A stretch of 55,575 nucleotides of DNA. It comes from Gemmatimonadaceae bacterium (GTDB taxonomy: Bacteria; Gemmatimonadota; Gemmatimonadetes; Gemmatimonadales; Gemmatimonadaceae). The stretch spans positions 1 through 55,575 of the forward strand of contig JBOHTH010000114.1 in NCBI GenBank assembly GCA_050733535.1, in the 5' to 3' direction. The notes beneath the pieces were generated by a model. That model had not been told where the DNA came from. It made no database searches and saw only the letters and a program-made list of their open reading frames with translations. The translations under genes and the position numbers were made by a program. Of this stretch, positions 6,971 through 44,709 are shown in pieces (within the stretch, counting starts at the first letter, position 1; the number at the start of each line of letters is the position of its first letter).

Positions 6971-7636
6971 TCACGGCGCGACGTTGACGGTGAGGCCGTT
7001 CGACGACACGCCGCCGGCGAGTGCCTGAATCTCGGTCGTCCCAACCAGGCCGGCCGTGATCAGACCGCTGCTCGAAACCGAAGCGGCACCGGTATTGGTC
7101 GATGCCCACGAGAACGTCACGCCGCCCAAGACGTTTCCTGCCGCGTCCCTCGCGACGGCCTGCGCTTGCATCGTGGAAAGCGACGTCATCGAAGACGAAG
7201 GGGCGGTCACGGTGATCGTCGCGACCGGCGCTGCGACGACTGAAAGCGCAAATGCGCTCGACGTGACGGCGTCCACTGCTGCTGTGATGTTCGCGTTGCC
7301 CGGGCCCACGCCGGTCACCATTCCGACGGCGTCGACCGTGGCGACGGAGGGATCGCTCGAGGTCCAGGCGAACGCCGCCTCACTGAGCGTGTCGCCCGCC
7401 GCGTCGAGTGCCACGGCCCGCAGGGGCAACGAGCCTGCCATCTCAACCTCAGCGGCGTCGGCGCTCACCACGATGCGTGAAAGCGTTCCCGGCGTGCCTG
7501 ATGTGCCCGTCGTTCCTGTTGTGTCCGTGGCGCCCGGTGTGCTCGGTGTGCCGGCGTCCGTCGGTCCGACGATCTTGGCGCCACCCGCCGCGCACCCCGC
7601 GAGGAGAAGCAGCACGACGACGGCGCCGGGCGGCAC
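6971..7636 (-). CDS. lipoprotein with two bacterial Ig-like (Big_2) domains
   Basis: Has a lipobox LLLLAGC after an in-frame GTG at 7636, a T/G/P-rich linker, then two repeats of the pattern L.A.A.DAAGN.L....F.W.SS....A.V...G.VT..G.G.A.ITA. The 313-aa track ORF extends upstream with no better start. Confidence 0.6.
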   Translation of the reverse strand: MPPGAVVVLLLLAGCAAGGAKIVGPTDAGTPSTPGATDTTGTTGTSGTPGTLSRIVVSADAAEVEMAGSLPLRAVALDAAGDTLSEAAFAWTSSDPSVATVDAVGMVTGVGPGNANITAAVDAVTSSAFALSVVAAPVATITVTAPSSSMTSLSTMQAQAVARDAAGNVLGGVTFSWASTNTGAASVSSSGLITAGLVGTTEIQALAGGVSSNGLTVNVAP

Positions 7637-7733
7637 GCGTTTCGCATGAGCAAAGGGCTTGATGTTGGTGGTAGAGTTCGTCTTCACGATGCTGTCTCCC
7701 GCGTCGACGTTCAACGCTCTCTGGAGGGAAACG

Positions 7734-8312
7734 ATGTCGTACACACGTCGAGCATGTGTCGCTGCGATCGGCCTGATCCTCTTCTGCACCGCGACCGCCG
7801 CGGCACAGTCCGCACAAGCCGTTTCATTGCAAGTCTCGGGCCTTGCTGGCGCAATCACGTTCAGGGATACGCTGCAGTTCGGAACCGGTGTCGAGGCACA
7901 GCTTCGGTTCAATCACGTGCTGGCGTCAGACGGAGGCGTACTTTCCATCGGAGTGGGTGCTCAATACACGCATCACTCGTTTGCCGAGGGCCAGAACTTC
8001 GATGTGGACGGCGCGTTCGTCGAACCCCGCTACGCGTTCGCGCTGTCGAGCGAACGATTGTTCCCGTACATCTCGGCGCGCTTCGCCATGCTGCGACAGT
8101 CGAGCAATGTCGTCGACGCCAGTTACGGCTACGCGGCCGGGGGAGGCGTTGGGATCGGCTATGCACTCGGCCGCAACCTGAACCTCGACATCGGCGCCGC
8201 AGTGCTTGTGCAACAGTTCGGGCACACGCGGATCACCGCGAGCAGCCAACCGTACGCCTTCGGCACGATGCCCGGCTACGCGCTCAAAATCGGCCTCAGC
8301 CTGGGCCTCTGA
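7734..8312 (+). CDS. small outer-membrane beta-barrel protein (OmpW/OmpA-barrel-like)
   Basis: GGAGGGAA sits 4 nt upstream of the ATG at 7734. The signal peptide ends TAAAQ. The sequence has alternating hydrophobic strands and ends in a C-terminal beta-signal-like stretch, YALKIGLSLGL. Confidence 0.55.
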   Translation: MSYTRRACVAAIGLILFCTATAAAQSAQAVSLQVSGLAGAITFRDTLQFGTGVEAQLRFNHVLASDGGVLSIGVGAQYTHHSFAEGQNFDVDGAFVEPRYAFALSSERLFPYISARFAMLRQSSNVVDASYGYAAGGGVGIGYALGRNLNLDIGAAVLVQQFGHTRITASSQPYAFGTMPGYALKIGLSLGL

Positions 8313-8322
8313 GGTTTGCCGC

Positions 8323-10338
8323 CTATGGAGCGAACGGCTGCGCCAATGACCAGCTGACGACCGCCGCCCCGCCTGCCGCCGCCCGCACGGCAACCACGAC
8401 CGTCGCGGTGCGGGAAGGGCGCGCTCCAGAAGCATGCGTCCAAGTGACCGGCACGACGTAGCGCACCTGCGCGCCCCCGTCGGGCGTCAGCGTGACACGC
8501 GGTGCGGTCGGTGTTCCCATCTCAAGATCGACCGGACGCCGGGCGAGCCAGTCGATGAAGGCTTGGTCCACGGGTGAGGAAATCATCGAGGCGCTGAGCG
8601 CGCGCACGTTTGAGGTTCGCAGTTGATCGACAACTATGCGGGCCGCCGTGGTGGCGTCGGCCGCGGAAAGGGGCGCTGGCGATGCGCGCGGCGCAGGCGG
8701 CGGCGGCGCGGCCGACAGCGTCGACGCGGTCGATACCGGCGTCGACGGGCTCGATGCCGGCGCCGACGGGCTCAATGCCGGCGTAGACGGGCTCGATCCT
8801 GGCGTCGACGGGCTCGATGCCGGCGCCGACGCGGGCGTCGCTGCCGGGGGCTCGCCAACTCGCGTCACGGCCGCTCCCACGGGCTGCGGCGGCGGGCTGC
8901 TCGGATTGGACGCTATGACGGGCCTCGGGCGAGCCTCGACGTTGAGCGTGTGCGTGGCGGCCGATTGTCCAGGGGACGGATCAGGCGGCACGATGACTTT
9001 CGGATGCTGACGGGTACGCGACGCCATCGCGCGTTGCTCCGCCCGCGGAGGAGGTATCACGAGCGCGTGGCGCACCACCGCCTCGCGCGCCGCTGGCTCG
9101 CGCGCCGCTGGCTCGCGCGCCGCAGGCTCGGCTGGCGCAGGCGGCAGTGACTCGACCGGCTGACGCGCGGCCGAAACCGGATCGGGCGGCGTGTTTGCCG
9201 GCGGTGCTACGGTTATCGGGGCATCGGAGGTTCGCGGGCTCTCCAGCTGCGACATTTCGAGCGCGACATCACCATGCAACCGATCAACCGTCGACGACGG
9301 AGTCCGCCACCACACCACGGCGCCAACCAGCACCGCGCACGCACCGACGGCGAGCGCGCGTCGGCGCAGACCGGCGGCGCGCGAAAGGATCCGCGGCGCT
9401 TGCCGGCGCACGGCGTCGCGGAGGCGCTCTTCCATCAAGTCCACGATCGGCGCGTTGATGGACGCGAACGGAGACCCGGCCGCTGCTGCATCCTGCGTGT
9501 CCTCCTCCAACGGCATGGCTCCCGACAGCTGCTGCTTCACGATCCAGCCGAGCGGCCCACGGAAGCGCTGGTCCTGGCCATCGCTCGCATGGGCGAAGAC
9601 CCGCACCGCGTCGGTGATCGACGGAAAGCGATTCGCGGGTCGTGCCTCGAGCATGCGCTTCACCGCGCGCGACCATTCCTCGGGCACGTCCCTCGATGAG
9701 AAGTCCGTCGCGTCCGGATGCCAGCGGAGCTGAATCCGGCGCAGCCACCCTGGCGATGTGTCGAGCGGACCGCGGTCCGCCAGCAGTTCGTACGCGAGCG
9801 CGCCGAGCGCATACTGGTCCGACGCGGGTGACGGATGTGCTCCGCGATGCAGCTCAGGGCTGGCGTACGCCGGCGGCGCAGAATCTCCGAAGTCGCCATG
9901 CACTCCCGCCGCGGCGACCGCGGCGGCTCTGCCGATGTCAGCAACCATCGCATCGCCGTTTTCGTCGACTATTATGCACGAGGAGCTGATCGCGCCGTGC
10001 GCCACTCCCGCCGCGTGCGCGTGCTCGAGCGCCATCCCCACCTGCGTGAGGATCGACGCGATTGCATTGATGGACTGCAGCGGCTCGGCGGCGAGAATCG
10101 ACTCGAGGGTGACGCCGGTCACATCCTCAGTGAGGATCACGACGGTATCGCCGCGTTCACGAACCGCGAGGACTCTCACCAGATTGGGATGGCGGAGCCC
10201 GAGCGCGGGCTGCATCGCCGCGATGAAGCGCTCTCTCGCGGCGGCGCTCCACCATCGTGAGGGCCCGAACACCTGCACCGACTCACGCGTATCCGTCTCC
10301 CGCATCGTGGCGTTCTGCATGCAATCCTCCGCGACCAT
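8323..10338 (-). CDS. membrane-anchored Ser/Thr-kinase-like pseudokinase with a Pro/Ser-rich repeat linker and an unknown C-terminal domain
   Basis: C-lobe kinase motifs are present (LRHPNLVRV, YASPE, DQYALGALAYELL). The HRDLKPxN position reads AHGAISSSC and DFG reads DIG. No Gly-rich loop or VAIK Lys is present. There is one TM helix (ALAVGACAVLVGAVVWW), plus repeats PAAREPAAREPAARE and SSPSTP. I placed the start at the ATG at 10338 because the track ORF's 5' extension runs into the tRNA-Ser gene. Confidence 0.6.
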   Translation of the reverse strand: MVAEDCMQNATMRETDTRESVQVFGPSRWWSAAARERFIAAMQPALGLRHPNLVRVLAVRERGDTVVILTEDVTGVTLESILAAEPLQSINAIASILTQVGMALEHAHAAGVAHGAISSSCIIVDENGDAMVADIGRAAAVAAAGVHGDFGDSAPPAYASPELHRGAHPSPASDQYALGALAYELLADRGPLDTSPGWLRRIQLRWHPDATDFSSRDVPEEWSRAVKRMLEARPANRFPSITDAVRVFAHASDGQDQRFRGPLGWIVKQQLSGAMPLEEDTQDAAAAGSPFASINAPIVDLMEERLRDAVRRQAPRILSRAAGLRRRALAVGACAVLVGAVVWWRTPSSTVDRLHGDVALEMSQLESPRTSDAPITVAPPANTPPDPVSAARQPVESLPPAPAEPAAREPAAREPAAREAVVRHALVIPPPRAEQRAMASRTRQHPKVIVPPDPSPGQSAATHTLNVEARPRPVIASNPSSPPPQPVGAAVTRVGEPPAATPASAPASSPSTPGSSPSTPALSPSAPASSPSTPVSTASTLSAAPPPPAPRASPAPLSAADATTAARIVVDQLRTSNVRALSASMISSPVDQAFIDWLARRPVDLEMGTPTAPRVTLTPDGGAQVRYVVPVTWTHASGARPSRTATVVVAVRAAAGGAAVVSWSLAQPFAP

Positions 10339-12849: not shown

Positions 12850-14783
12850 CGAACGCGAATCGCGCAGCGCTCCGCTTGTTCACACTCGGGTTTCTCGTTG
12901 GCGCGCCGCTGGCCGCGCAGTCGAACACGATCCCGGCCGATCCGCCGGGTGAATGGCACAACTACAACCGCGACCTCGGCAGTTCACGCTACTCGCCGCT
13001 GAGCCAGGTGGATCGCACCAACGTCGGCACGCTCGCGCTCGCATTTACCTGGCGCCCGGACAGTGGCGTCGCGCCGCGCGAATCGAAGAACGAGAGCACG
13101 CCGCTCATGGTGCACGGCACACTGTATTTTTCGACCTCGCTCAACCGCGACGTCGTCGCGGCCGATGCCGCGACCGGAAAGCAGAAGTGGCGCTGGCACC
13201 AGGATGAAGCCGTGCGCGCCGCGGTCGCGCCGCGCCGCGGATCAGGGCGCGGGGTCAGTTACTGGAGCGATGGAAAGGAAGAGCGGATTTTCGTCGTCAC
13301 CCCGGGCTACCGGCTTGTTGCGCTCGACGCGAAGACCGGCGCGATGATTCCGACCTTCGGCGCCGACGGTGTCGTGGATCTCAAGATGCAGATCGGCGCC
13401 CCGCTCGACCCCGATAAAGCCGTCATCGGGTCGAGCTCGCCGCCGCTCGTGTTCGGCGACATCCTGGTGATCGGACCTGCGCTCGAAGTCGGATCGCGCC
13501 CGGTATCCTATAGGAACGTCCCCGGCCGCGTCCTCGCGATCGACGCGCGCACCGGAAAACTGCGCTGGCGCTTCAACACAATCCCCACGGCCGGCGAGTT
13601 CGGCTCCGATACGTGGGAGAATGGTTCCGCGGAGTATACCGGCAACGCGGGTGCGTGGGCGCCGCTCACGCTCGATGCCAAACGCGGGTGGCTCTACCTC
13701 CCGGTTGAAGCCGCGACCGGCGACTACTACGGCGGCCACCGTCTCGGCAACAATCTCTTTTCAACTTCGCTCGTGTGCGTGGACATCCGCACCGGCAAGC
13801 GCATCTGGCACTATCAGATCGTCCACCACGATATCTGGGATTACGACCCGCCCACCGCGCCGATCCTCGCGGACATCACCGTTGACGGAAAGAAGATCGA
13901 GGCTGTCGTCCAGCTCACCAAGCAGTCGTTCGCGTACGTGTTCGACCGTGTGACCGGCACGCCGGTGTGGCCAATGGTCGAGAAGCCTGTGCCGCCCTCG
14001 GACATCCCGGGCGAGCGCACCGCGCTGACGCAGCCCTTCCCCACCAAGCCGCCGGCGTACGACCGTCAGGGCATTTCAGCAGACGACCTCATCGACTTCA
14101 CGCCTGAACTGCGCGCAGCGGCGCTCGAGGCGATCAAGCAGTACCACATCGGTCCGCTCTTCACGCCAGCGACACTCCAGCACGCGGCGGACGGCACCAA
14201 GGGACTGCTCTCGCTGCCGGGCTCGCTTGGCGGCGCAGACTGGGAAGGCGGGGCCGTGGACCCCGAAACCGGCGTCGTGTATGTGGGGTCGCACACCGCG
14301 CCAAGCGTGCTCGCGATGGCGCGCGACTCCGCACACTCGGACATGAACGTCGTCAACCTCGGCGGCGGCCCGCCGAACGTGCAGGGGCTTCCGCTCCTCA
14401 AGCCGCCTTACAGCCGGATCACCGCGATCGACCTCAACCGCGGCGATTTCCTCTGGCAGATTCCGAGCGGAGGCACGCCGGACCGCGTGAAGAACAATCC
14501 GGCACTCACTGGGTTGACGATTCCTCCCACGGGCGGGTTTGGTCGTCCAGTGGTGCTGGTGACCAAGACGCTGCTGTTCGCCGCAGAGGGCTGGGGAGGC
14601 GCGCCGGTGTTACGCGCGATCGACAAGAAGACCGGCGAGGTGCTATGGTCGGGTGCGCTGCCGGGGTCGGTGAGCAGTGTGCCGATGACTTACGAGGTCG
14701 GCGGCAAGCAGTACATCGCGTTTTGGGTTGATGACGCGAGAACGCGCTTGCCGTCGGAGCTGGTAGCGTTCGCCCTTCCCTAG
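12846..14783 (+). CDS. secreted PQQ-dependent dehydrogenase (quinoprotein, 8-bladed beta-propeller family)
   Basis: Has a signal peptide (LVGAPLAAQ), WHNYNRDLGSSRYSPLSQV, STPLMVHGTLYF and repeated A.DA.TGK..W propeller motifs typical of glucose/alcohol quinoprotein dehydrogenases. The start forms an ATGA overlap with the upstream stop. Confidence 0.75.
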   Translation: MTNANRAALRLFTLGFLVGAPLAAQSNTIPADPPGEWHNYNRDLGSSRYSPLSQVDRTNVGTLALAFTWRPDSGVAPRESKNESTPLMVHGTLYFSTSLNRDVVAADAATGKQKWRWHQDEAVRAAVAPRRGSGRGVSYWSDGKEERIFVVTPGYRLVALDAKTGAMIPTFGADGVVDLKMQIGAPLDPDKAVIGSSSPPLVFGDILVIGPALEVGSRPVSYRNVPGRVLAIDARTGKLRWRFNTIPTAGEFGSDTWENGSAEYTGNAGAWAPLTLDAKRGWLYLPVEAATGDYYGGHRLGNNLFSTSLVCVDIRTGKRIWHYQIVHHDIWDYDPPTAPILADITVDGKKIEAVVQLTKQSFAYVFDRVTGTPVWPMVEKPVPPSDIPGERTALTQPFPTKPPAYDRQGISADDLIDFTPELRAAALEAIKQYHIGPLFTPATLQHAADGTKGLLSLPGSLGGADWEGGAVDPETGVVYVGSHTAPSVLAMARDSAHSDMNVVNLGGGPPNVQGLPLLKPPYSRITAIDLNRGDFLWQIPSGGTPDRVKNNPALTGLTIPPTGGFGRPVVLVTKTLLFAAEGWGGAPVLRAIDKKTGEVLWSGALPGSVSSVPMTYEVGGKQYIAFWVDDARTRLPSELVAFALP

Positions 14784-15680
14784 CTAAGGCACGATCCTCG
14801 GCGGCGGCGGCGCGAGCGGGAGCGTCGCATCCTCCTTCGCCTTCTCCGCTCTCTGCTCCTGCATCCTGTGGCGCAGTTCCTTCACCGCCGAGTTGAAATC
14901 TTCGTCCCGCGCGGACCGCGCCTCCTGCTCGATAATTTCCGCCCGCATCGCCCCTATGCGCCTCGACTCGCCGTACGTGGCTGGATTCCCCTGCACGTTC
15001 AGCGGCAACAGCGCGAGCAACGCGGTCGGAATCGAGAAGTTGCCCAGATGGATGTATCGCTGGTCGATGCCGTATTGCTTGCCATCCTTCCCCTTCACCG
15101 TCCAGTCTCCGGCCGCGCGCTGCGGGCCGAGCGCGTTGAGCGAGTCCTGCACGTGGTGCACGCCCGACGCGATGGCGCTGTCGAGCCGTTCGGTTGACGT
15201 TTTGGGTTTGACCGGCGCCGGATCCGTCGGCGCCCAGAGGCGCGGGTCAAGGAACTGCGGCGTCACGCCACGCGTAGGCCCCCCGCCATCGATGACTGCG
15301 CCGGTGCCTCCTTCCGATGGCGCGGCAGGTACGGCGGGTGTGGCACTCTTGGACGGCTCGGGCGGCAACTCCGACGGCACTTCCGTCGGTGTCACGAGCG
15401 GTGCCGGCGCGACTTTACTCGTGACGCGCCGGTTGTCACCTCCGGCCTTTCGATGCGATCCCGAATCGGCGGGGACGCGCACGTAGTCGACATGCGTTTG
15501 CATGGGCTCCGGTGGGCGCGAGCCGTCGATCCAGTGGAGCGGCACGATCGCCACGCGCACGAGCACGGCGATCACGACCACGTGGATGGCGACCGAGGCG
15601 GCAATCGTCCACGGGCCGCGGCGCGCGGGGTCCGCCCGCTCGCCCGGCGTGCTGATGGCTCGGCGTCGGTCCGCGCTCAC
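14784..15680 (-). CDS. hypothetical membrane-anchored protein (one N-terminal TM helix, Pro-rich linker)
   Basis: Contains the TM segment WTIAASVAIHVVVIAVLVRVAIV followed by a Pro-rich stretch. The architecture vaguely resembles TonB, but I recognise no domain. Confidence 0.4.
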   Translation of the reverse strand: MSADRRRAISTPGERADPARRGPWTIAASVAIHVVVIAVLVRVAIVPLHWIDGSRPPEPMQTHVDYVRVPADSGSHRKAGGDNRRVTSKVAPAPLVTPTEVPSELPPEPSKSATPAVPAAPSEGGTGAVIDGGGPTRGVTPQFLDPRLWAPTDPAPVKPKTSTERLDSAIASGVHHVQDSLNALGPQRAAGDWTVKGKDGKQYGIDQRYIHLGNFSIPTALLALLPLNVQGNPATYGESRRIGAMRAEIIEQEARSARDEDFNSAVKELRHRMQEQRAEKAKEDATLPLAPPPPRIVP

Positions 15681-36494: not shown

Positions 36495-36905
36495 CTAACT
36501 GAGGTTCTTCGTTAGCTGCGACGGCTTTGCTCTGGGGCCGCGAAGGTCGGCGGCGTGGCGAACCCTCGAGTGAAGCGAGCTCAGCATTCGCATAACCAAG
36601 TCCGTGCGGGCATCCAGTCTCGCGTAATCCGACTTGGACAGCACTCCGAGGTCGACGGCGAGTTGCAGATGGTACGTGAGTTCGAACGCGGACGCGAGCG
36701 CGATTCCGAGGAAGCGCGAAAGTTCACGCGAGCCGGCGTGACCGCAGCCTTCGGCAATGTTCGCGGGAATCGAGGCCGCGGCTCTGCGAATCTGTGAGGT
36801 CAGTCCCGGAAACTTCCTCTCCGGCACGTTTACCGTCGCCGCGTAGATGAGCAGCACGAGTTGATGCGATTTGTTCCAAACAGTGAGTTTCCGAAAATCC
36901 TGCAT
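36495..36905 (-). CDS. four-helix-bundle protein (TIGR02436; formerly called 23S rRNA intervening-sequence protein)
   Basis: Contains F.KL.VW.K.H.L...IY, QIRRAA.SIPANIAEG..... and F...A..S..EL...L.LA.DLG, which is the classic pattern. Local GC is visibly lower than in the neighbouring genes. Confidence 0.8.
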   Translation of the reverse strand: MQDFRKLTVWNKSHQLVLLIYAATVNVPERKFPGLTSQIRRAAASIPANIAEGCGHAGSRELSRFLGIALASAFELTYHLQLAVDLGVLSKSDYARLDARTDLVMRMLSSLHSRVRHAADLRGPRAKPSQLTKNLS

Positions 36906-37072: not shown

Positions 37073-38162
<1,090 letters not shown>

Positions 38163-38173
<11 letters not shown>

Positions 38174-39350
38174 CCGCCGGCGCGCGCAGCCGGTGGGCCG
38201 CAGCGCGTGCAAGGCGAACCGGCTGCAGCGCGAGCACGCGCAGGAGGCGGATCGGGTAATACAGCACGACGAGCCACGCCGGCAGCCTCACGAGTTCCCA
38301 CTCACGCGGGGTCGGCGCCAGCACGCTCAGCGCGATGTACCGGGCGCGATCGCTCGCATGGTCCATCATTCCCATGTTGAACCGGTAGGGCTGGCCGGTC
38401 GACACCACGCCGGCTTCGAGAGCCCTCACGACCTGCGCCGCGCGTGCCGCCGTGCGATCTTCGTCCGCGAGCGCCGCGAGGCGCGCGGAGAGCGGTGCCC
38501 CAAGCACATCATGCGCGAGTCGCAGCGCCAGGCTCAGCGCACGCGCCGATCCGTTCGCGTTCGCGCGCTCGATGAGCAGCTCCTCGTCGGCGCCCACCCG
38601 CGTCAGCAGCTGCGCGAACGCCACGAGCCATTCCAGCCGTTCCCACTGGTGGCGGGCGCCGTGCATCGCCTGAAGCAGAAGCTGATCTGCATTGTCCGGG
38701 CTCAGCGCGGCAAATCCTGCGAGCTCAATGCGTATCGCGCGTGCGAACACTTCTTCGGCTGGAATCGACCACGGATATCGCGGCGCCGCGAACCGCCAAT
38801 GCAGCTCCACGGGCACTCCGGCGTCCCGCGGCGAATACACGAAGTGGCCGAAGCTCCGCTGGAGCGCGCGCTCCTGTGCCGGCGACATCGCCGACGCCGG
38901 TGCGTAGCCCGCACGCACGAGCGTCTCGCGCGCGCGCTCGATGTCGTCCGGACGTACGACCACGTCGAGATCGACCGAGTCGCGCACGCCAAGCTCGCCG
39001 TACGCCGCCAGCGAGAGCGCCGGTCCCTTGAACGGGAGCGCCCGAACACCGTCCTCGTCCAGCGCACGCAGAAGCTGCGCAAGCTGCTGCGTGCGCGCGA
39101 GTGCGCGCGCCGCAATCGTGACCGTCTCCTGCATCACGCGCCCGGCGCAGTCGGGGGGTGACGGCGCGCGCGCGGCGCCGAGCACGCGCTGCGCGTGCGG
39201 GATGAGCCGGTGCCAGCGCGCGAGTTCAAGCCATTCGGTCCAGTCCACCGCGGCGGCCGCGCGCGCGCGAACCATGTCGAGTTCGCCGTTCGATGCGTCC
39301 CACGTGGCGCAGGCGAGCAGCAGGCCGTACGCGGGGCGCGAAACGCTCAC
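38163..39350 (-). CDS. PF14907-type (NTP_transf_5) uncharacterised nucleotidyltransferase; lasso-cluster tailoring candidate
   Basis: Contains LLLACA....DW.EWLELARWHRL.P and ALPFKGPALSLAAYGELGVRDSVDLDVVVRPDD...A...L...GY, the pattern of the nucleotidyltransferases that accompany HPr-kinase-like genes in RiPP clusters. The GTG at 39350 forms a GTGA overlap with the kinase stop. The 3' end overlaps the ychF 3' end by 11 nt (convergent). Confidence 0.7.
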
Positions 39351-40306
39351 CCGCGCACGACTCCGGCGATCGCGCGCACGAGATCGCCGATGCGCACAGG
39401 ATTGGTGTGCGGCGTGGCGCGCGCGACCTGCACACCCTGCAGCAGGTGAGCGATCGCCGCGAATTCCTCCGCACGCATGCGATCGTCGAGCAGGTAATTC
39501 GCGTAGCTGTTGGCCGCAATTTCGACGAACGCCTCTCCGGGCGGCACTCGCTCCATTCGCGGCGCGTCGGGCGCGTCGCTCCGCGGGGCGAGCAGCACCA
39601 CGGCGCCCAGCCGGGCAGCCTGCTGGCACCACGTCCACCCGTGGGCGCGGACCCGGAGGGCGCGCTTGTCCCATGTGGGCGTCAGTCGTGGCAGCGCACC
39701 GTTCGTGCCGAGGAGGATTTCCTCCGCATCGCGCCAGACGCGCAGGTGATCGTACCCGGGCATCGCCATGGCCGCGCCGTCGTGCACGCGGACTGCCGTC
39801 ATGTCGTCAGCGAGTACGCCGAAGCCCGCGGAGGCGAACGCGCCGGCTGTGGTGCTTTTCCCCGCTTCGGCGGGTCCGCACAGTGCGATCGCAATGCCAT
39901 CCACCACGACCGCGCTCGCGTGAAGGCACAGCACGCCCATCAGGCGCTGCGCGAACCCCAGCACGGGGCCGAGCAGGTAGGTCTCAGTGTCCGCGAGCGT
40001 CGACGACGGCGCCCACGTCGCCCACAGCTCGCGCCCATCGCGCGCAATGTGAAACTCCGTCGCGTCGGCGTAGCGCAGCCGGAATCCCTTGGCGCACTCA
40101 TGCACGACCAGTGTCTCGTCCGGCGTTGATTCGGCTGGCGGCGTGCGATATCTCACCGCGGCGCCATCGGCCGCAGCGTGGTGCCATGGGGGCACGTCGT
40201 CGAGCGCGATCGTGACGTCGGGCACGGCAAACGGCGGCGCGTCGGGCAGTCCGAAGAGCGCGAGGTTGGACGCGAACGTCAGCCCGTAAATCGAATAGGC
40301 GGGAAT
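39347..40306 (-). CDS. HPr-kinase/phosphorylase-like (HprK C-terminal-like) peptide kinase; lasso-cluster tailoring candidate
   Basis: Contains LHASAVVVDGIAIALCGPAEAGKSTTAGAF (P-loop in the HprK-like context). The first canonical start is the GTG at 40225. The in-frame upstream sequence IPAYSIYGLTFASNLALFGLPDAPPFA looks like the conserved N-terminus of this family and is preceded by GGAGG-7nt-ATT at 40306. The 5' end is therefore given as 40306, provisionally. Confidence 0.65.
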   Translation of the reverse strand: MPAYSIYGLTFASNLALFGLPDAPPFAVPDVTIALDDVPPWHHAAADGAAVRYRTPPAESTPDETLVVHECAKGFRLRYADATEFHIARDGRELWATWAPSSTLADTETYLLGPVLGFAQRLMGVLCLHASAVVVDGIAIALCGPAEAGKSTTAGAFASAGFGVLADDMTAVRVHDGAAMAMPGYDHLRVWRDAEEILLGTNGALPRLTPTWDKRALRVRAHGWTWCQQAARLGAVVLLAPRSDAPDAPRMERVPPGEAFVEIAANSYANYLLDDRMRAEEFAAIAHLLQGVQVARATPHTNPVRIGDLVRAIAGVVRG

Positions 40307-40346
40307 GCCGCGCCCTCCCTGTCGACGGACGACCCCGCCCTCCCGC

Positions 40347-41336
40347 TCACCTGCGCGCCCCGGCGCGCTCCGCTGCGCTCAGCTCGCGCAGGCGCTCGAG
40401 CGAGACGAGATGTGAAGCGAGAGTCGACTGGCGGAACGAGACGGAGTCCGTGCGCGGCGCGCCTCGAGTCAGTGTCGAATCCCAGCCCCAGAGGTACTCG
40501 CCGTTGATGCAGGTGGCGGTAAGCGCCACTGTGAGGCGATCTCCCGGGATCGTGCGTAACGGACGCTCGAACGGAAAAAAGGCCTGTCCATACAGCGCGC
40601 GCGGCGCTAACGGCGAGTTCGAGAGCGTCACGCCGAATCCGAAATCGGCCTCGAACCAGATCGCGAGGCCGTCCGCGACGCTGTCGTGCGCAAAGGTCCA
40701 CTCGGCATGTCCCACGGCGTTCGGCGAGTCGATCGTCGCGTAGTCCAGTGTCGTCCAGTGCACGCCTGCGCCGATCAGGTCGCCGGCGCTGACGCGGCCG
40801 CCATACCACTCCGAACGAACGCGCGCGGCAATGGCGCGCCGGTCGATACCGTGTGGACTGTCACCCATATCGGCATGATCGCGACGCCAGTTCTCGGGCG
40901 CCGTACACGGCGCAGCCCACAGTGCGTCACTCTGGGGCACCAGCGTCGCACCCGGCCGCACGAGGCGCGTGCGCGCGTCCACGAGCGTCGGGATGTGTGC
41001 CTCGAACAGCGGCAGTACTCCGCGCAGGTCGCTCAGGAGCACGTCGCCTTGCTCGGGCAGCGTGACGCGGCGCGAGTCGTCGCGGATGAACGTGATGCGA
41101 TCGGCGCAGCCGTTGTCGGCGGCGAGTTGCGCGGCGAGTTCGACCGCGGGATTCAGCTCGATCGCGTACACATGCCGCGCGCCAGCGCGGCACGCGGCCA
41201 CCGCGAAATAGCCGACACCGGTGCCGATCTCGACCACGGCGTTCCCCGGCCGGACGGCCAGCTGGATTGCCGAGAGGTACGCCGCGGTTCGCGCCGGATC
41301 GGCGAACATCGAGTCGTAGTCCGGAACATCATACAC
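40347..41336 (-). CDS. class I SAM-dependent methyltransferase, PRMT-like architecture (Rossmann domain plus C-terminal beta-barrel-like domain)
   Basis: Has motif I VVEIGTGVGYFAVAACRAGARHVYAIELNP, a post-I acidic residue and a ~200-aa C-terminal extension. The GTG start at 41336 lies 34 nt after the precursor stop. Confidence 0.7.
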   Translation of the reverse strand: MYDVPDYDSMFADPARTAAYLSAIQLAVRPGNAVVEIGTGVGYFAVAACRAGARHVYAIELNPAVELAAQLAADNGCADRITFIRDDSRRVTLPEQGDVLLSDLRGVLPLFEAHIPTLVDARTRLVRPGATLVPQSDALWAAPCTAPENWRRDHADMGDSPHGIDRRAIAARVRSEWYGGRVSAGDLIGAGVHWTTLDYATIDSPNAVGHAEWTFAHDSVADGLAIWFEADFGFGVTLSNSPLAPRALYGQAFFPFERPLRTIPGDRLTVALTATCINGEYLWGWDSTLTRGAPRTDSVSFRQSTLASHLVSLERLRELSAAERAGARR

Positions 41337-41370
41337 GACGCGGTACCTGCCGGATCAATCCTCGCGCGCC

Positions 41371-41556
41371 TCAGCCCGTCTTGGAGGTCATCATGCTGCC
41401 GCCATCGGCTTTCATGCTCATGTTGCCGACGGTGCGCGTGAGCGCCGCGACGTTGCCATAGACGTGCAAGCGCGGGGGAACGTAGGGCTTTCGCGCCGCG
41501 GCATTCGACGGCGGCACCCGATCCGTCTCCATCCTGTCGTCCTCTCGGCGTTCCAT
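41371..41556 (-). CDS. lasso peptide precursor (61 aa): MERREDDRMETDRVPPSNAAARKPYVPPRLHVYGNVAALTRTV / GNMSMKADGGSMMTSKTG
   Basis: The ATG at 41556 is preceded by GGGGAGGG at 8-nt spacing and lies 5 nt after the cyclase stop. The leader carries Y-V-P-P-R-L-HVY-G (YxxPxLx3G, the RRE-binding motif) and a Thr at -2. The core starts with Gly and has Asp at position 8. Confidence 0.7.
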   Translation of the reverse strand: MERREDDRMETDRVPPSNAAARKPYVPPRLHVYGNVAALTRTVGNMSMKADGGSMMTSKTG

Positions 41557-41560
41557 GGTT

Positions 41561-43252
41561 TCACCCTCCCCTGATTGACCGCGCTGCGGGCGATCGTTCG
41601 AGATTCCGCAGCCACTGATCGAGGACGAATACGCGGCGCACGGCAAGGACCTCGTCCACCGACCCTGTTTTCAATGTATCCGCGACGCTTCGAGTGTCAA
41701 CGAACTCGCGCACGGCGTCGCCGAGCGTCGGCTGATGCGCAGCAGCGCTCCAGCGCGCCGCCTGTTCCTCAAAAAATCCGCGGAGCGGTTCCTTCGGCCG
41801 CGTCAGCACTTCGTCAGGCAGTTCACCGCGAAACGCGCGGCGTACGAGCTCCTTCCGCTGGCACCACGGCACCGGTGGTATGGAGAAGACGAACTCCATG
41901 ACCCGCACGTCGAGAAATGGCCAGACAATTTCCAGCGGCACCCCCGTGTACGCGGGCTGCGCGGACTCGAGCATACCCTGCCATATCGGGTCCGCCAGGT
42001 ACCGGACCGCGTCGGGCCGGGTTGCGTGCGGCACCGTGCTCGGCAGCGCAGGCAGCCGCGCGCGGGCGTCCCGCCGAATCCAGCGCCAAACCCTGTCCGC
42101 TCGCGGTACGAATGGCGCCAGAAGTCGGCGGCGCAGCCAGAGGCCCAGATGGGGATGATGACGATGAGAAATGGTGTAGCTCAGCACGCGGCGCAGGATG
42201 TCGTGCACGGGCCAGCTGCGCAGCATTGTCAGCAGTCCCGGCGGACGAAAGAGCGCGTCACCGTCTTCGCCGCTCAGCAGCACCGGCGCGACGGACGAAA
42301 TCTGCCCGAGTTGCCGCACCCAGTCACGCCATTCCGGCTCGTCGAGCGGTTCTGGCGTTCGAAACGCCGTGTCGTCCGGGTCCATGAACGGCGCGGGCTC
42401 TGCGCGAACCACCTCATGCGCGATGCCGAGCGTCGCCGCGACCGCGGCCGCAAGCCGGTTTTCATCCGGAGGCTGCGCCGCCCCTGCATCGTTCGTCCAC
42501 GCGCTCAGCCGGGTTGCCGGCGCCACGCGGCGCGCCGTCGCCGCGATGCTCGTCGAGTCGAGCCCGCCGCTGAGCAGGATCGCAGCACGATCCGTCCGCA
42601 GGCGGTCGCGCACCGCCTCGCCAAGTACATCGCGAAAACGCTCGACGTACTCGTCGTCATGCCCGACGCGGAGCCGTGCCGGGACCGGAAACGACCAGTA
42701 CTTCCGCGGCAAAATCGAACTCGAGTCGTCGCGAACGACAAACTGATGCCCCGGCGGAAGCCGCCGGACGTCGGCGAACGACGTCGTTGATGTGTCGGCG
42801 TTGTACCCGTGCTGCAGGAACGAGACGATCGCCGGTGCGTGCAGTCGCGACGAAACGCGCGCGCGTGCCCGCACTTCATCGAGCACGTTGCTGCACACGA
42901 ACGTGCGTCCTATCTCTGCCCAATATAGGGGGCGCACGCCGAGCGCGTCGCGCGCGCAGAAGAGCGTGCGCTGGCGATGGTCCCAGAGCGCAAAGCTGTA
43001 GTCGCCGATGAGCCGTTCGGTGGCGGTCTCGCGCCAGGCGGTCCAAGCGGCGAGCACCAGTTCCGCGTCGGTGGCGCTGTTGCCTGTGGCGACGCCTGCT
43101 CCGCCAAGCGCGTCGCGGAGCGCGTCACGCCCGTCGAGCCGCACGTGACCGACAATCCAGCTCCCGGCGCGCACGTCGGCTATGCTGCTTGCGGCTGTGC
43201 TGGCACTCACGGGCCCGTCGCCGCGGAGCAGTTCGGCGACGAACGTGCTCAC
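41561..43252 (-). CDS. lasso peptide isopeptide-bond-forming cyclase (asparagine synthetase B-like, McjC family)
   Basis: Has the PP-loop AILLSGGLDSTSIAA, an AsnB-like N-domain without the Cys1 nucleophile (GDYSFALWD, FCARDALGVRPLYW). The GTG at 43252 forms a GTGA overlap with the B2 stop. Confidence 0.85.
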   Translation of the reverse strand: MSTFVAELLRGDGPVSASTAASSIADVRAGSWIVGHVRLDGRDALRDALGGAGVATGNSATDAELVLAAWTAWRETATERLIGDYSFALWDHRQRTLFCARDALGVRPLYWAEIGRTFVCSNVLDEVRARARVSSRLHAPAIVSFLQHGYNADTSTTSFADVRRLPPGHQFVVRDDSSSILPRKYWSFPVPARLRVGHDDEYVERFRDVLGEAVRDRLRTDRAAILLSGGLDSTSIAATARRVAPATRLSAWTNDAGAAQPPDENRLAAAVAATLGIAHEVVRAEPAPFMDPDDTAFRTPEPLDEPEWRDWVRQLGQISSVAPVLLSGEDGDALFRPPGLLTMLRSWPVHDILRRVLSYTISHRHHPHLGLWLRRRLLAPFVPRADRVWRWIRRDARARLPALPSTVPHATRPDAVRYLADPIWQGMLESAQPAYTGVPLEIVWPFLDVRVMEFVFSIPPVPWCQRKELVRRAFRGELPDEVLTRPKEPLRGFFEEQAARWSAAAHQPTLGDAVREFVDTRSVADTLKTGSVDEVLAVRRVFVLDQWLRNLERSPAARSIRGG

Positions 43253-43695
43253 TCCGACCCGAACGTCGCGAGCACGCGGTATCGGTCGTGCGGATCGTCG
43301 CCGGTGACGAGCACGCCGCCGCTCTCCACCCATGCATGCGCGTCGAGCGTGACGTGAGATACGCCATCCGCCCGCGCATGAGCGACGCCTATGCTCAGGC
43401 GCGCCCGTGCTCCGCCGTGCAGCAACAGACGCTCGGCCACCAGCGACTGCGCGAGGCAGCTGCTTCCCGGCAGCGACCTCGACGCACGGAGCACCGCGCG
43501 GCGGACGGTGCGCGGCCACGCGTCATCCGCGTGCGCGTCCGTTGGCACACGGCCGACGACCATCGCATGGAGGCGGTCGAACGGGAGCAGTCGGAGCCCC
43601 GTGCGCGTCAGGGCAAGCCAGGCGACGGCACGCATCGCGAGCATCTTTTCCGCGGCAGGAAGCCGCGCAAAGTTACGGAGCCGCGCCGGGAACAA
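43249..43695 (-). CDS. lasso peptide biosynthesis B2 protein (transglutaminase-like Cys protease, leader peptidase)
   Basis: Contains LLPFDRL, SCLAQSLVAERLL (the Cys), L.IGV and DAHAWVE (the His). The start is uncertain: TTG at 43695, ATG at 43644, or ATG at 43758/43770 with a long overlap of B1. Confidence 0.8.
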   Translation of the reverse strand: MFPARLRNFARLPAAEKMLAMRAVAWLALTRTGLRLLPFDRLHAMVVGRVPTDAHADDAWPRTVRRAVLRASRSLPGSSCLAQSLVAERLLLHGGARARLSIGVAHARADGVSHVTLDAHAWVESGGVLVTGDDPHDRYRVLATFGSE

Positions 43696-43984
43696 CTTCG
43701 AGCAACTCGCGGGAGAGGAGATCGCCGGTGAGCGCGAGCAGATCGTCGAGCGCGACATCCCGCCCAACATCGAATTCGCGGCTCACGGTGTCGGCGAGAT
43801 CGCCGAGCGCCGTCGGCTGCTGCACGAGTTCCCAGATCCGCGCGCCGGTCCCGGCGAGGCCGTAATAGACGCTGTCCTTCAGGCCGAGGATAACCGCTTC
43901 CCCGGCGAGCTGGGTCGAGAGCTGGCTCCGGGATGCGACGACCCGCGTGTGCTCAGTGATGGTTGATCTCTCGAGTCCGGCCAT
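43673..43984 (-). CDS. PqqD-family RiPP recognition element (lasso B1 protein)
   Basis: Contains GEAVILGLKDSVYYGLAGTGARIWELV and DLLSRELLEV, the PqqD/RRE pattern. I chose the ATG at 43984; the track ORF's extension to 44065 runs into the palindrome. Confidence 0.8.
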   Translation of the reverse strand: MAGLERSTITEHTRVVASRSQLSTQLAGEAVILGLKDSVYYGLAGTGARIWELVQQPTALGDLADTVSREFDVGRDVALDDLLALTGDLLSRELLEVVPGAAP

Positions 43985-44050
43985 AGGGGGCAGTTTACCA
44001 ACAAGAGGGAAGAACAACCAGCGGCGGCAGGACGTAGGGGAAACCCATGA

Positions 44051-44179
44051 CCCCGAGCACACCACCCCTAGCCCAACACGCCGTCGCTGTTACCCATGAC
44101 GCTCAAGCCCAAACAGTTCCGCGTTCGGGGATATGGGTAACGGCAAAGGCGTGTTGGGCTAGGGGTTCTGCGCTCGGGG
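44051..44179. repeat. long imperfect palindrome (two ~47-nt arms, 35-nt centre) between the lasso operon and rpsF
   Basis: The left arm is ccccgagcacaccacccctagcccaacacgccgtcgctgttacccat. The right arm is atgggtaacggcaaaggcgtgttgggctaggggttctgcgctcgggg. The arms are roughly 85% complementary. Confidence 0.8.
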
Positions 44180-44346: not shown

Positions 44347-44709
44347 TTGTCTCGTGAATACGAGGCGGTGTACATCTTCGACTCTGCGCTCGAAGACGCC
44401 GCCATCAACGACAAGATCGCGAAGTTTCATGGGCTTCTGGGTTCAACTCAGGAGATCAAGCTCGACCACTGGGGTCGCCGCCAGCTCGCGTACAAGATCG
44501 GAACGCGCGAGACAGGCTACTACGTGGTCGCCCGCTTTCACGCCGAGTCGAAGACGCTTCCCGAGTTCGAGCGCGCGCTCAAGCTCGATGACGGCGTCGT
44601 TCGCTATCTGATCTCGGTGCACGAGCACGAGCTCGGTGCGCCGCCAATGACCGAAGAGCAGCTGGCCGCTCGCAAACAGGGAGACGATGACGATGACGAT
44701 GAGGACTGA
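44347..44709 (+). CDS. rpsF: 30S ribosomal protein S6
   Basis: Contains [18 protein letters not shown] and an acidic D-rich tail. The TTG start is preceded by AGGAGG. Confidence 0.9.

Follow-up and report, generated by a model that had tools for sequence, protein, structure and literature searches.

A lasso-peptide gene cluster of Gemmatimonadaceae combining an HprK-like kinase, a PF14907 nucleotidyltransferase and a methyltransferase with the fold of protein arginine methyltransferases

Introduction

Both antibiotics and engineered peptides can be built on the lasso scaffold, and the chemistry available for this grows with every tailoring enzyme that is added. In the phosphorylated representatives, i.e., the clusters of paeninodin (PadeK), ThcoK/SyanK, pseudomycoidin (PsmK/PsmN) and Bradymonas (BsfK/BsfN), an HprK-like kinase and a nucleotidyltransferase of the PF14907 type stand beside split B1/B2 genes and a cyclase gene, C. 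BsfK, a kinase of lasso precursors, has been characterised biochemically (PMC10368454), and when PsmN is expressed in E. coli, the phospho-Ser of pseudomycoidin receives one or two hexoses; among the PF14907 members of lasso clusters, PsmN is the only one studied (PMC9266682, PMC8498205). The published methyltransferases of lasso clusters that we found are O-methyltransferases, PIMT homologues and one putative Met S-methyltransferase. In this study a lasso cluster is described from a stretch of 55,575 nt (hereafter the window; G+C ~67%) of a Gemmatimonadaceae bacterium (assembly GCA_050733535.1, contig JBOHTH010000114.1), in which a kinase and a nucleotidyltransferase of the same kind are accompanied by a methyltransferase with the fold of protein arginine methyltransferases (PRMTs).

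The cluster consists of seven co-directional genes on the minus strand (38163-44065), in the order B1-B2-C-A-MT-K-N, where A is the precursor, MT the methyltransferase, K the HprK-like kinase and N the PF14907 nucleotidyltransferase. It is a genuine, intact lasso-peptide gene cluster, of which 38163-41336 is the tailoring half. An initial annotation of the window had reported the K, N and MT genes there, and all three were found at these positions on the minus strand; it had also compared the K and N pair to those of paeninodin and pseudomycoidin, which the pair indeed matches, together with the bsf cluster. The cluster is a lasso cluster with an uncharacterised class of tailoring enzyme, whose chemistry is predicted here from the enzymes, the cognate peptides and their distribution.

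Results

Fold and family of the methyltransferase

The MT gene (40347-41336, minus strand) encodes a protein of 329 aa that is assigned to the S-adenosylmethionine (SAM)-dependent enzymes and whose motif I reads VVEIGTGVGYFAV. In Pfam it retrieved generic Rossmann matches alone (TRM5/TYW2 and PrmA, residues 17-103), the PrmA match being limited to profile positions 148-233, which is the Rossmann part. Among PDB sequences, phmmer matched it to PRMT6, PRMT1, PRMT2 and CARM1 (E 1e-21 to 1e-15), with PRMT6 as the best match (E 1.6e-21, aa 3-260), and together the PRMT matches span residues 3-275, i.e., the beta-barrel as well as the Rossmann domain. An AlphaFold2 model computed from a 30-sequence alignment reached a predicted local distance difference test score (pLDDT) of 92.8 and a predicted template modelling (TM) score (pTM) of 0.88. 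When this model was compared with the PDB by Foldseek, the 50 best matches were all type I PRMTs (TM 0.75-0.83), PRMT2 among them with TMq 0.82 and E ~1e-28. In two homologues of the enzyme (P0104 and P0109) PRMT_C of Pfam was matched over its cutoff. The Rossmann SAM domain with GxGxG, the N-terminal alpha-Y helix and the C-terminal beta-barrel of type I PRMTs are all present, and MT is homologous to this class of PRMTs over its full length.

The resemblance to PRMTs or PrmA that had been suggested in the initial annotation was therefore borne out in its first half by phmmer and Foldseek, and abandoned in its second, the PrmA equivalog scores being far under their cutoffs. The structure and profile comparisons place MT with the PRMTs and not with the PIMT or O-methyltransferase families of lasso clusters. 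Relatives of MT are named '50S ribosomal protein L11 methyltransferase' at NCBI and PRMT1 at JGI, and both of these public names are probably wrong for the family.

Three other family assignments were tried and rejected. As a PIMT, MT scored 20.7 bits against NF001453 (cutoff 188), the match being confined to ~50 residues at the Rossmann motif. As a PrmA, it scored 23.7 bits against TIGR00406 (cutoff 183.15) and 23.9 against NF001790 (cutoff 269). The lassomycin/StspM type of O-methyltransferase (Methyltransf_2) was absent from the Pfam and NCBIfam matches, and all top structural matches were PRMTs.

Active site and C-terminal extension

Conservation in the active site was read from MT alignments of 30 and 87 members. 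The SAM-binding residues M10, D13, R16, Y20, G38/G40/G42 and E60 are invariant or almost so; in PRMT1 numbering, the SAM-binding positions that are retained include M48, D51, R54, Y58 and E100. The first Glu of the PRMT double-E loop falls on position 103, where Asp occurs in 84 and Glu in three of the 87 sequences, and the second falls on position 112, which is mostly Gly (30), Gln (22) or Glu (20), the last being retained in the window enzyme (E112). The THW loop of PRMTs is aligned to A-L-Y in the window enzyme and to [LTA]-[IV]-Y as the family consensus, with Y249 in 84 of 87 sequences. Two residues of the former double-E loop are specific to the family, R105 (74/87) and H114 (65/87). Neither the two-Glu double-E loop nor the THW loop by which the active sites of type I PRMTs are recognised is found in the family as a whole. 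Judged by these alignments, MT is a PRMT by fold in which the SAM site is intact and the residues that clamp arginine have been lost.

The great majority of the methyltransferases (76 of 87) are ~380 aa long owing to a C-terminal extension of ~60 aa; such long forms are found among P0065-P0119, at 7343-8485 of locus L008 and at 9001-10149 of locus L092. The window enzyme and its close Gemmatimonadales relatives have the short form, without the extension. The Pfam PqqD profile matched the extension in four of 12 members (best E 0.0038), and hhalign aligned it to the helices of the B1 protein of the cluster with a probability of 15%. Its AlphaFold model contains three helices (pLDDT 78), and the four best PDB matches of Foldseek were leader-bound B1 proteins of lasso clusters, TbiB1 (5V1U) and TfuB1 (6JX3), at TM 0.55-0.57 and with non-significant E values of ~1. 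In this modelled form the extension resembles the helical part of a PqqD-type recognition element (RRE) for peptides that are ribosomally synthesized and then modified post-translationally (RiPPs), which suggests that MT may act in a leader-dependent manner on the linear precursor.

Kinase and nucleotidyltransferase

K (39347-40225, minus strand; 292 aa) was matched by TIGR04352, HprK_rel_A, at E 1.8e-11, which is under the cutoff of the model, and by BsfK in BLASTP with 31% identity over 153 residues (E 5e-11). Its Walker A motif is GPAEAGKST. Seven of the eight motif residues of BsfK are kept, since H101, G116, G121-K122-S123 and D140-D141 of K correspond to H148, G163, G168-K169-S170 and D186-D187 of BsfK, and the eighth, G166, is replaced by Glu; substitution of G166 is tolerated in BsfK (PMC10368454). 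K has the H...G..G.GKS...DD motif and the location in a lasso cluster that mark lasso kinases, and its sequence predicts phosphotransfer. Homologues of K carry PF27840 ScmC. Sequence relatives in the PDB were marginal ones for K, and none were found there for N.

N (38163-39350, minus strand) was matched by PF14907 at E 9.3e-49 and 166.7 bits (cutoff 31.2) over profile positions 2-249 of 249, and thus stands above the gathering threshold and beside a lasso kinase. It contains the pattern KGPALS...DLDVVV. Its start is likely the GTG at 39350, which overlaps the stop codon of K (GTGA) in an arrangement of translational coupling and gives a protein of 395 aa; orthologues measure 384-416 aa, and the maximal open reading frame (ORF) at 38163-39674 (503 aa) is over-extended. 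By sequence, the catalytic motifs of both K and N are intact.

Precursor and core peptides

The precursor gene most likely lies at 41371-41556 on the minus strand and encodes 61 aa from an ATG preceded by GGGGAGGG. The product is divided into the leader MERREDDRMETDRVPPSNAAARKPYVPPRLHVYGNVAALTR and the 20-residue core TVGNMSMKADGGSMMTSKTG, which has a single Asp and ends in K-T-G; it bears the leader motif YxxPxL...T-x and was matched by NF033528 (lasso_cyano) at E 0.0018. With 54 homologous cores at other loci, the core set comprised 55 precursors, i.e., that of the window and those of the related loci L001-L089. The leader pattern [YFW]xxPx[LIVM]xxx[GAS]xxxxxT-x is common to all 55. The spacing between YxxPxL (-17 to -12) and the residue at -2, which was validated for BsfA (PMC10368454), is the same in these precursors, and with Thr at -2 this canonical rule yields the 20-residue core of the window, in which six residues are Ser or Thr. 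The count given in the initial annotation (no Arg, two Lys and five Ser/Thr) holds for an 18-residue core, GNMSMKADGGSMMTSKTG, and fails for the 20-mer in the number of Ser/Thr.

Arginine was found in 16 of the 55 cores, the core of the window being one of the 39 without it, and no conserved Arg position was found in the leaders of the 55 precursors. Lysine is present in 54 cores, and every core contains Ser or Thr. A K-[TS] pair lies within the last seven residues of 46 cores (K-T in 42), mostly with zero to two residues after it. Because Lys and the K-[TS] pair are so frequent and Arg is confined to 16 cores, the C-terminal Lys-Thr, and not Arg, is by sequence the apparent conserved modification target. 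As an indication of whether arginine is the substrate, its occurrence in the cognate cores is indirect. The methyl acceptor and the phospho-acceptor had been called not obvious in the initial annotation; with cores that lack a conserved Arg and with the loss of the Arg-binding residues of PRMTs, this judgement stands.

The 55 cores are hydrophilic, rich in Gly (21%) and free of Cys, with 6% Met and with aromatic residues nearly absent; Met occurs in 33 of them, four times in the core of the window. Aromatic or other bulky residues fit to act as steric plugs of a threaded lasso are nearly missing, and the missing plug might be supplied by the C-terminal modifications.

Under canonical cleavage the single Asp of the window core is at position 10 (TVGNMSMKAD), which would give a macrolactam of 10 residues; described lasso rings have 7-9 residues. 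If cleavage instead took place after T-x-x-[VIA], two residues further on, the Asp would be at position 8 and the ring would be G1-D8. The predicted monoisotopic mass of the lasso is 1971.852 Da for the 20-mer and 1771.736 Da for the 18-mer, and 2065.834 Da for the 20-mer carrying phosphate and a single methyl group; for the peptide of A. galeatum it is 1894.938 Da before modification. Among the 55 cores the first acidic residue at or after core position 7 is at position 10 in 25, at position 9 in 19 and at position 8 in seven.

In some Gemmatimonadales loci the precursor genes occur in tandem, in two to four copies with divergent cores (L006 9000-9952, L002 9600-9962). In one of the copies of L006 the ring Asp is replaced by Val (RVGKKGANAVGG...).

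Two further modifications were considered and set aside. An aspartimide route via a conserved D-G would use the one acidic residue of the window core, which is required for the ring. Methylation of Met at sulfur was considered for the Met-rich cores, and Met is present in just the 33 cores given above.

Co-conservation and distribution

Co-occurrence was counted at the non-redundant genome and metagenome loci L001-L089, filtered by flank length. Where each flank measured 4 kb or more (17 loci), C was present in 16, K in 16 and N in 13; where each measured 1.5 kb or more (30 loci), K was present in 27. K and MT occur together at 60 loci, and in 58 of these they are adjacent and co-directional (K-MT in 47, MT-K in 11), the median distance between them being ~50 nt. 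Conservation of the tailoring genes together with the B and C genes was seen in related as well as in distant genomes. The view that the trio is unusual, put forward in the initial annotation, is right in relation to the characterised lasso peptides and wrong in sequence space, where it is a common architecture over several phyla.

The cluster was found in Gemmatimonadota, Gammaproteobacteria, Acidobacteriota and the cyanobacterium Argonema galeatum. By genomic context the module is present in at least four phyla, to which KSB1 and Anaerolineae are added by source name. In the metagenome-assembled genomes (MAGs) of Gemmatimonadales it occupies one site, rpsF-rpsR-rplI | B1-B2-C-A(1-4 copies)-MT-K-N | ychF-pth-rplY-prs. 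At this site (window ~30000-50400; L005, L006, L090, L091) rpsF-rpsR-rplI-rsfS stand on one side and ychF-pth-rplY-prs on the other, and MT identity among the loci goes down to ~50%. No transporter gene belongs to this version of the cluster, which looks old and vertically inherited, behaving like a part of the core genome.

Other gene orders were found elsewhere: C-A-K-MT-N in a MAG of Gammaproteobacteria (L003), C-A-K-MT followed on the opposite strand by TPR, ABC, ABC, N, B2 and B1 in L008, and B1-B2-C-A-K-MT-ABC-N in the isolate genome of A. galeatum (GCA_023333595.1, L092). In a MAG of Blastocatellia (Acidobacteriota, L093) the module is present with a 2OG-Fe(II) oxygenase gene (8449-8970) between K and MT; a second PF14907 gene (14012-15100) of this locus adjoins a peptidase C25 gene.

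In a search of the MT profile against 1.84 billion cluster representatives, 3,551 matches were obtained at E <=1e-30. The best 150 of these matches (50%-identity clusters) all had E <1e-111, and nearly all of them were ~380 aa long and covered the full length of the profile. A scan of genome contigs yielded four loci.

Methyltransferase genes of the long form that have no lasso, K or N genes in the available flanks were observed at L082 9989-11146, L088 2989-4119 and L089 3634-4830; the flanks were examined by Pfam scan for L082 and L089, and by tblastn only for L088. Neighbours in L082 and L089 include a biopterin-dependent hydroxylase, a 5'-nucleotidase, a P-type ATPase and a large Ser/Thr kinase with TPR repeats.

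A search of plasmids yielded distant PRMT-like genes only, and no K homologue was found on them. These genes (25-39% identity), also named 'L11 methyltransferase', are on the Pantoea dispersa plasmid NZ_CP082345.1 (L095, 20018-20983) and on pTM2 of Tistrella mobilis (L094). The Pantoea gene has an iron-containing redox enzyme, a Rieske protein, an MFS transporter and an ATP-grasp enzyme as neighbours, and the Tistrella gene an AMP-binding enzyme and an oxidoreductase.

Remaining genes of the locus

The three core biosynthetic genes of the cluster, all on the minus strand, were identified by PqqD, Transglut_core3 and Asn_synthase matches. B1 (43673-44065), a PqqD-like RRE, was matched by Pfam PqqD (E 6.2e-14) and by NF033536, the lasso PqqD chaperone (E 9.3e-13); its coordinates are those of the maximal ORF, and the ATG at 43984 as start would give 103 aa. 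B2 (43249-43770), a transglutaminase-like leader peptidase, was matched by Transglut_core3 (E 3.2e-18) and, above the cutoff, by NF033537, lasso_biosyn_B2 (74.2 bits, cutoff 33). C (41561-43252), a lasso cyclase of 563 aa similar to Asn synthetase, was matched by Asn_synthase (E 2.9e-31) and GATase_7, and its top NCBIfam match was the lasso cyclase model NF033535 (E 3.3e-62, under the model cutoff). The start of C is likely the GTG at 43252, which overlaps the stop codon of B2; the maximal ORF extends to 43519, and orthologues measure 553-623 aa.

The cluster is bounded by ychF (37073-38173, plus strand) and rpsF (44347-44709, plus strand). Inside the 3' end of C, a weak sigma-70-like match (TTGACA-16-TACATT; 41673-41700, minus strand; 10 of 12 consensus positions) lies ~117 nt upstream of the precursor ATG. 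One such site was found where 0.5 would be expected by chance, and the match is one to the consensus only; it could be a dedicated promoter of the precursor gene. Between pth and ychF, a gene of the PF05635 family (23S rRNA intervening-sequence protein, four-helix bundle; E 2e-32) was found at 36495-36905 on the minus strand, and it keeps this position in related genomes.

Discussion

The reading to which we lean, with confidence only slightly better than even, is that K phosphorylates the conserved Thr, that N decorates the phosphate and that MT N-methylates an acceptor other than arginine, probably the adjacent Lys. All three enzymes would act on the linear precursor while it still bears the leader, as known lasso kinases do. 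K would phosphorylate the Thr of the C-terminal K-T motif, N would add a group to the phosphate so installed in the manner of PsmN, and MT would move a methyl group from SAM to its non-arginine acceptor. In the active site, Asp103 would stand in for the first Glu of PRMTs, and Arg105 and His114 could possibly sense the phosphate nearby. Removal of the leader and closure of the macrolactam at the single Asp, by B1, B2 and C, would follow.

As the acceptor of the methyl group, the epsilon-amine of the conserved Lys beside the phospho-Thr is favoured, although our confidence in this particular group falls somewhat short of even. Methylation of Lys at N-epsilon is preferred because the fold is known for N-methylation, because the carboxylate of D103 is situated at the nucleophile site, and because Lys is the most conserved nucleophile of the cores. 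An acidic position 103 would favour a nitrogen nucleophile over an anionic oxygen nucleophile.

Several observations weigh against this scheme. The target of BsfK is Ser3 and not a C-terminal residue (PMC10368454), and the target site of K proposed here is a predicted one. The window MT itself has no RRE-like extension. The C-terminal K[TS] motif is missing from nine of the 55 cores, and the conserved Lys could be merely a recognition determinant of the kinase. At L040 the core AMQNGSFADAAQMQMMMPGMMA (8800-9007), the sole precursor between C and K there, has no Lys, Arg or Thr and contains seven Met, although the MT of this locus has every residue that is invariant in the family; Lys is therefore not a universal acceptor. 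An anionic acceptor, for instance phosphate or carboxylate, would be just as consistent with the gain of R105 and H114. Finally, the orphan methyltransferases, at three of the 30 well-flanked loci, have no lasso genes near them.

Some of these observations lead to the rival that survives best, namely O-methylation of an anionic group by MT, which would either cap the phosphate installed by K as a methyl phosphodiester or esterify the C-terminal carboxylate. Ser or Thr and a C-terminus are available in every core, including the Lys-free core of L040, and the tight linkage of K and MT as well as the double-E loop, which gained R105 and H114 and lost the second Glu, would be accounted for. Methyl esters at the C-terminus are known in lasso peptides (PMC9266682), so that MT would be convergent with the enzymes of lassomycin and StspM. 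On the other hand, D103, acidic in all 87 sequences and situated at the nucleophile site of PRMTs, would be unfavourable beside an anionic acceptor, and to our knowledge the PRMT fold has been associated with N-methylation only. N and MT would moreover compete if they shared one phosphate, and, unless Lys is a determinant for the kinase, this rival offers no explanation for its presence in 54 of the 55 cores. We regard this rival as unlikely, and as the main one.

That MT is a true arginine methyltransferase, acting on an Arg of the leader, on the Arg-containing cores or on another cellular protein, is improbable. The full PRMT fold and homology, the PRMT1 label given to relatives by JGI, the retention of the second Glu (E112) in the window enzyme and the existence of some Arg-rich cores, such as AVGRRGVVADGGGGRRSKTS of L006, are what such an activity would predict; the predominance of Arg-free cores, among them that of the window, the want of a conserved Arg position in the leaders and the failure of the family to conserve the second Glu and the His and Trp of THW are not. 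Least probable of all, and hardly credible, is a housekeeping, PrmA-like methyltransferase of ribosomal proteins that stands beside the lasso genes only through the ribosomal-gene setting, as the NCBI name and the position of the Gemmatimonadales cluster between rpsF-rpsR-rplI and ychF-pth-rplY might suggest, since MT reaches 21-24 bits with the PrmA equivalogs, whose cutoffs are 183-269, the Pfam PrmA match is to the Rossmann part alone, and in Gammaproteobacteria, L008, Argonema and Blastocatellia the gene is flanked by K, C and N, away from ribosomal genes.

Returning to a Lys-directed or otherwise non-arginine methylation, a wider picture may be drawn tentatively, as one that is possible rather than probable. 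MT may represent a bacterial branch of the PRMT fold in which the second catalytic Glu and THW gave way, Arg105, His114 and an RRE-like tail were acquired, and the enzyme was re-tooled for methylation of RiPP precursors at a non-arginine group (the Lys of Lys-phosphoThr, or the phosphate) as an obligate partner of the HprK-like kinase. Such a pathway would yield a lasso whose multiply decorated C-terminus replaces the plug residues, perhaps with an unprecedented 10-residue ring and an intracellular role in Gemmatimonadales, the latter being conceivable because an exporter is missing there and the neighbourhood is one of ribosomal genes. If true, a PRMT-fold enzyme that does not act on arginine would mean a new modification of lasso peptides and a new class of substrate for a heavily studied fold. 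As the isolate genome of A. galeatum (GCA_023333595.1) carries the cluster, the question is directly testable.

Comparison with known systems

The phosphorylated lasso clusters share the YxxPxL leader and the catalytic motif of the kinase with the cluster of the window, and the bsf cluster of Bradymonas is, in addition, also flanked by ribosomal protein genes (PMC10368454). The differences concern the acceptor and the third enzyme. Phosphorylation is known at a C-terminal Ser, or in the case of BsfK at Ser3, whereas the candidate here is the Thr of K-T(-x), which is usually penultimate; and a PRMT-like methyltransferase, present in the window, is not reported for the phosphorylated clusters in the reviews (PMC9266682, PMC8498205). 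In a full-text literature search no paper describing a methyltransferase of the PRMT type in a lasso cluster was found, and a passing bioinformatic mention may exist elsewhere.

SAM-dependent methyltransferases also occur in the lasso clusters of lassomycin (LasF) and StspM (O-methyltransferases), of cellulonodin-2 and lihuanodin (PIMT homologues) and of longipeptin (LopH). StspM is similar to mitomycin 7-O-methyltransferase, the PIMT homologues to PCMT, and LopH to a PF00145-annotated protein and a SAM-binding domain of MTHFR (PMC9266682, PMC10664482). Action on the linear precursor, as proposed for the window MT, is shared with StspM. The PIMT route of cellulonodin-2 and lihuanodin needs a spare Asp in the core, whereas the single Asp of the window core is required for the ring, and aspartimide formation is thus unlikely.

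Compared with the type I PRMTs (PRMT1, 2, 3, 6, 8 and CARM1), MT has the same alpha-Y helix, Rossmann domain, beta-barrel and SAM residues; type I PRMTs possess the E...E double-E loop and THW, whereas the MT family has D...x and x-[IV]-Y in their places. A PRMT-like enzyme of bacteria, SznE/StzE, reportedly methylates free L-arginine in streptozotocin biosynthesis. SznE/StzE and the plasmid-borne PRMT-like genes are alike with MT in placing a PRMT-like fold in bacterial natural-product settings; however, the substrate of these small-molecule enzymes is free arginine (known or predicted), and they are distant from MT and have no link to lasso genes or kinases. Unlike the eukaryotic PRMTs, the MT genes are bacterial and situated in RiPP clusters, most of their products bear an RRE-like tail of three helices, and the cognate peptides are without a conserved Arg.

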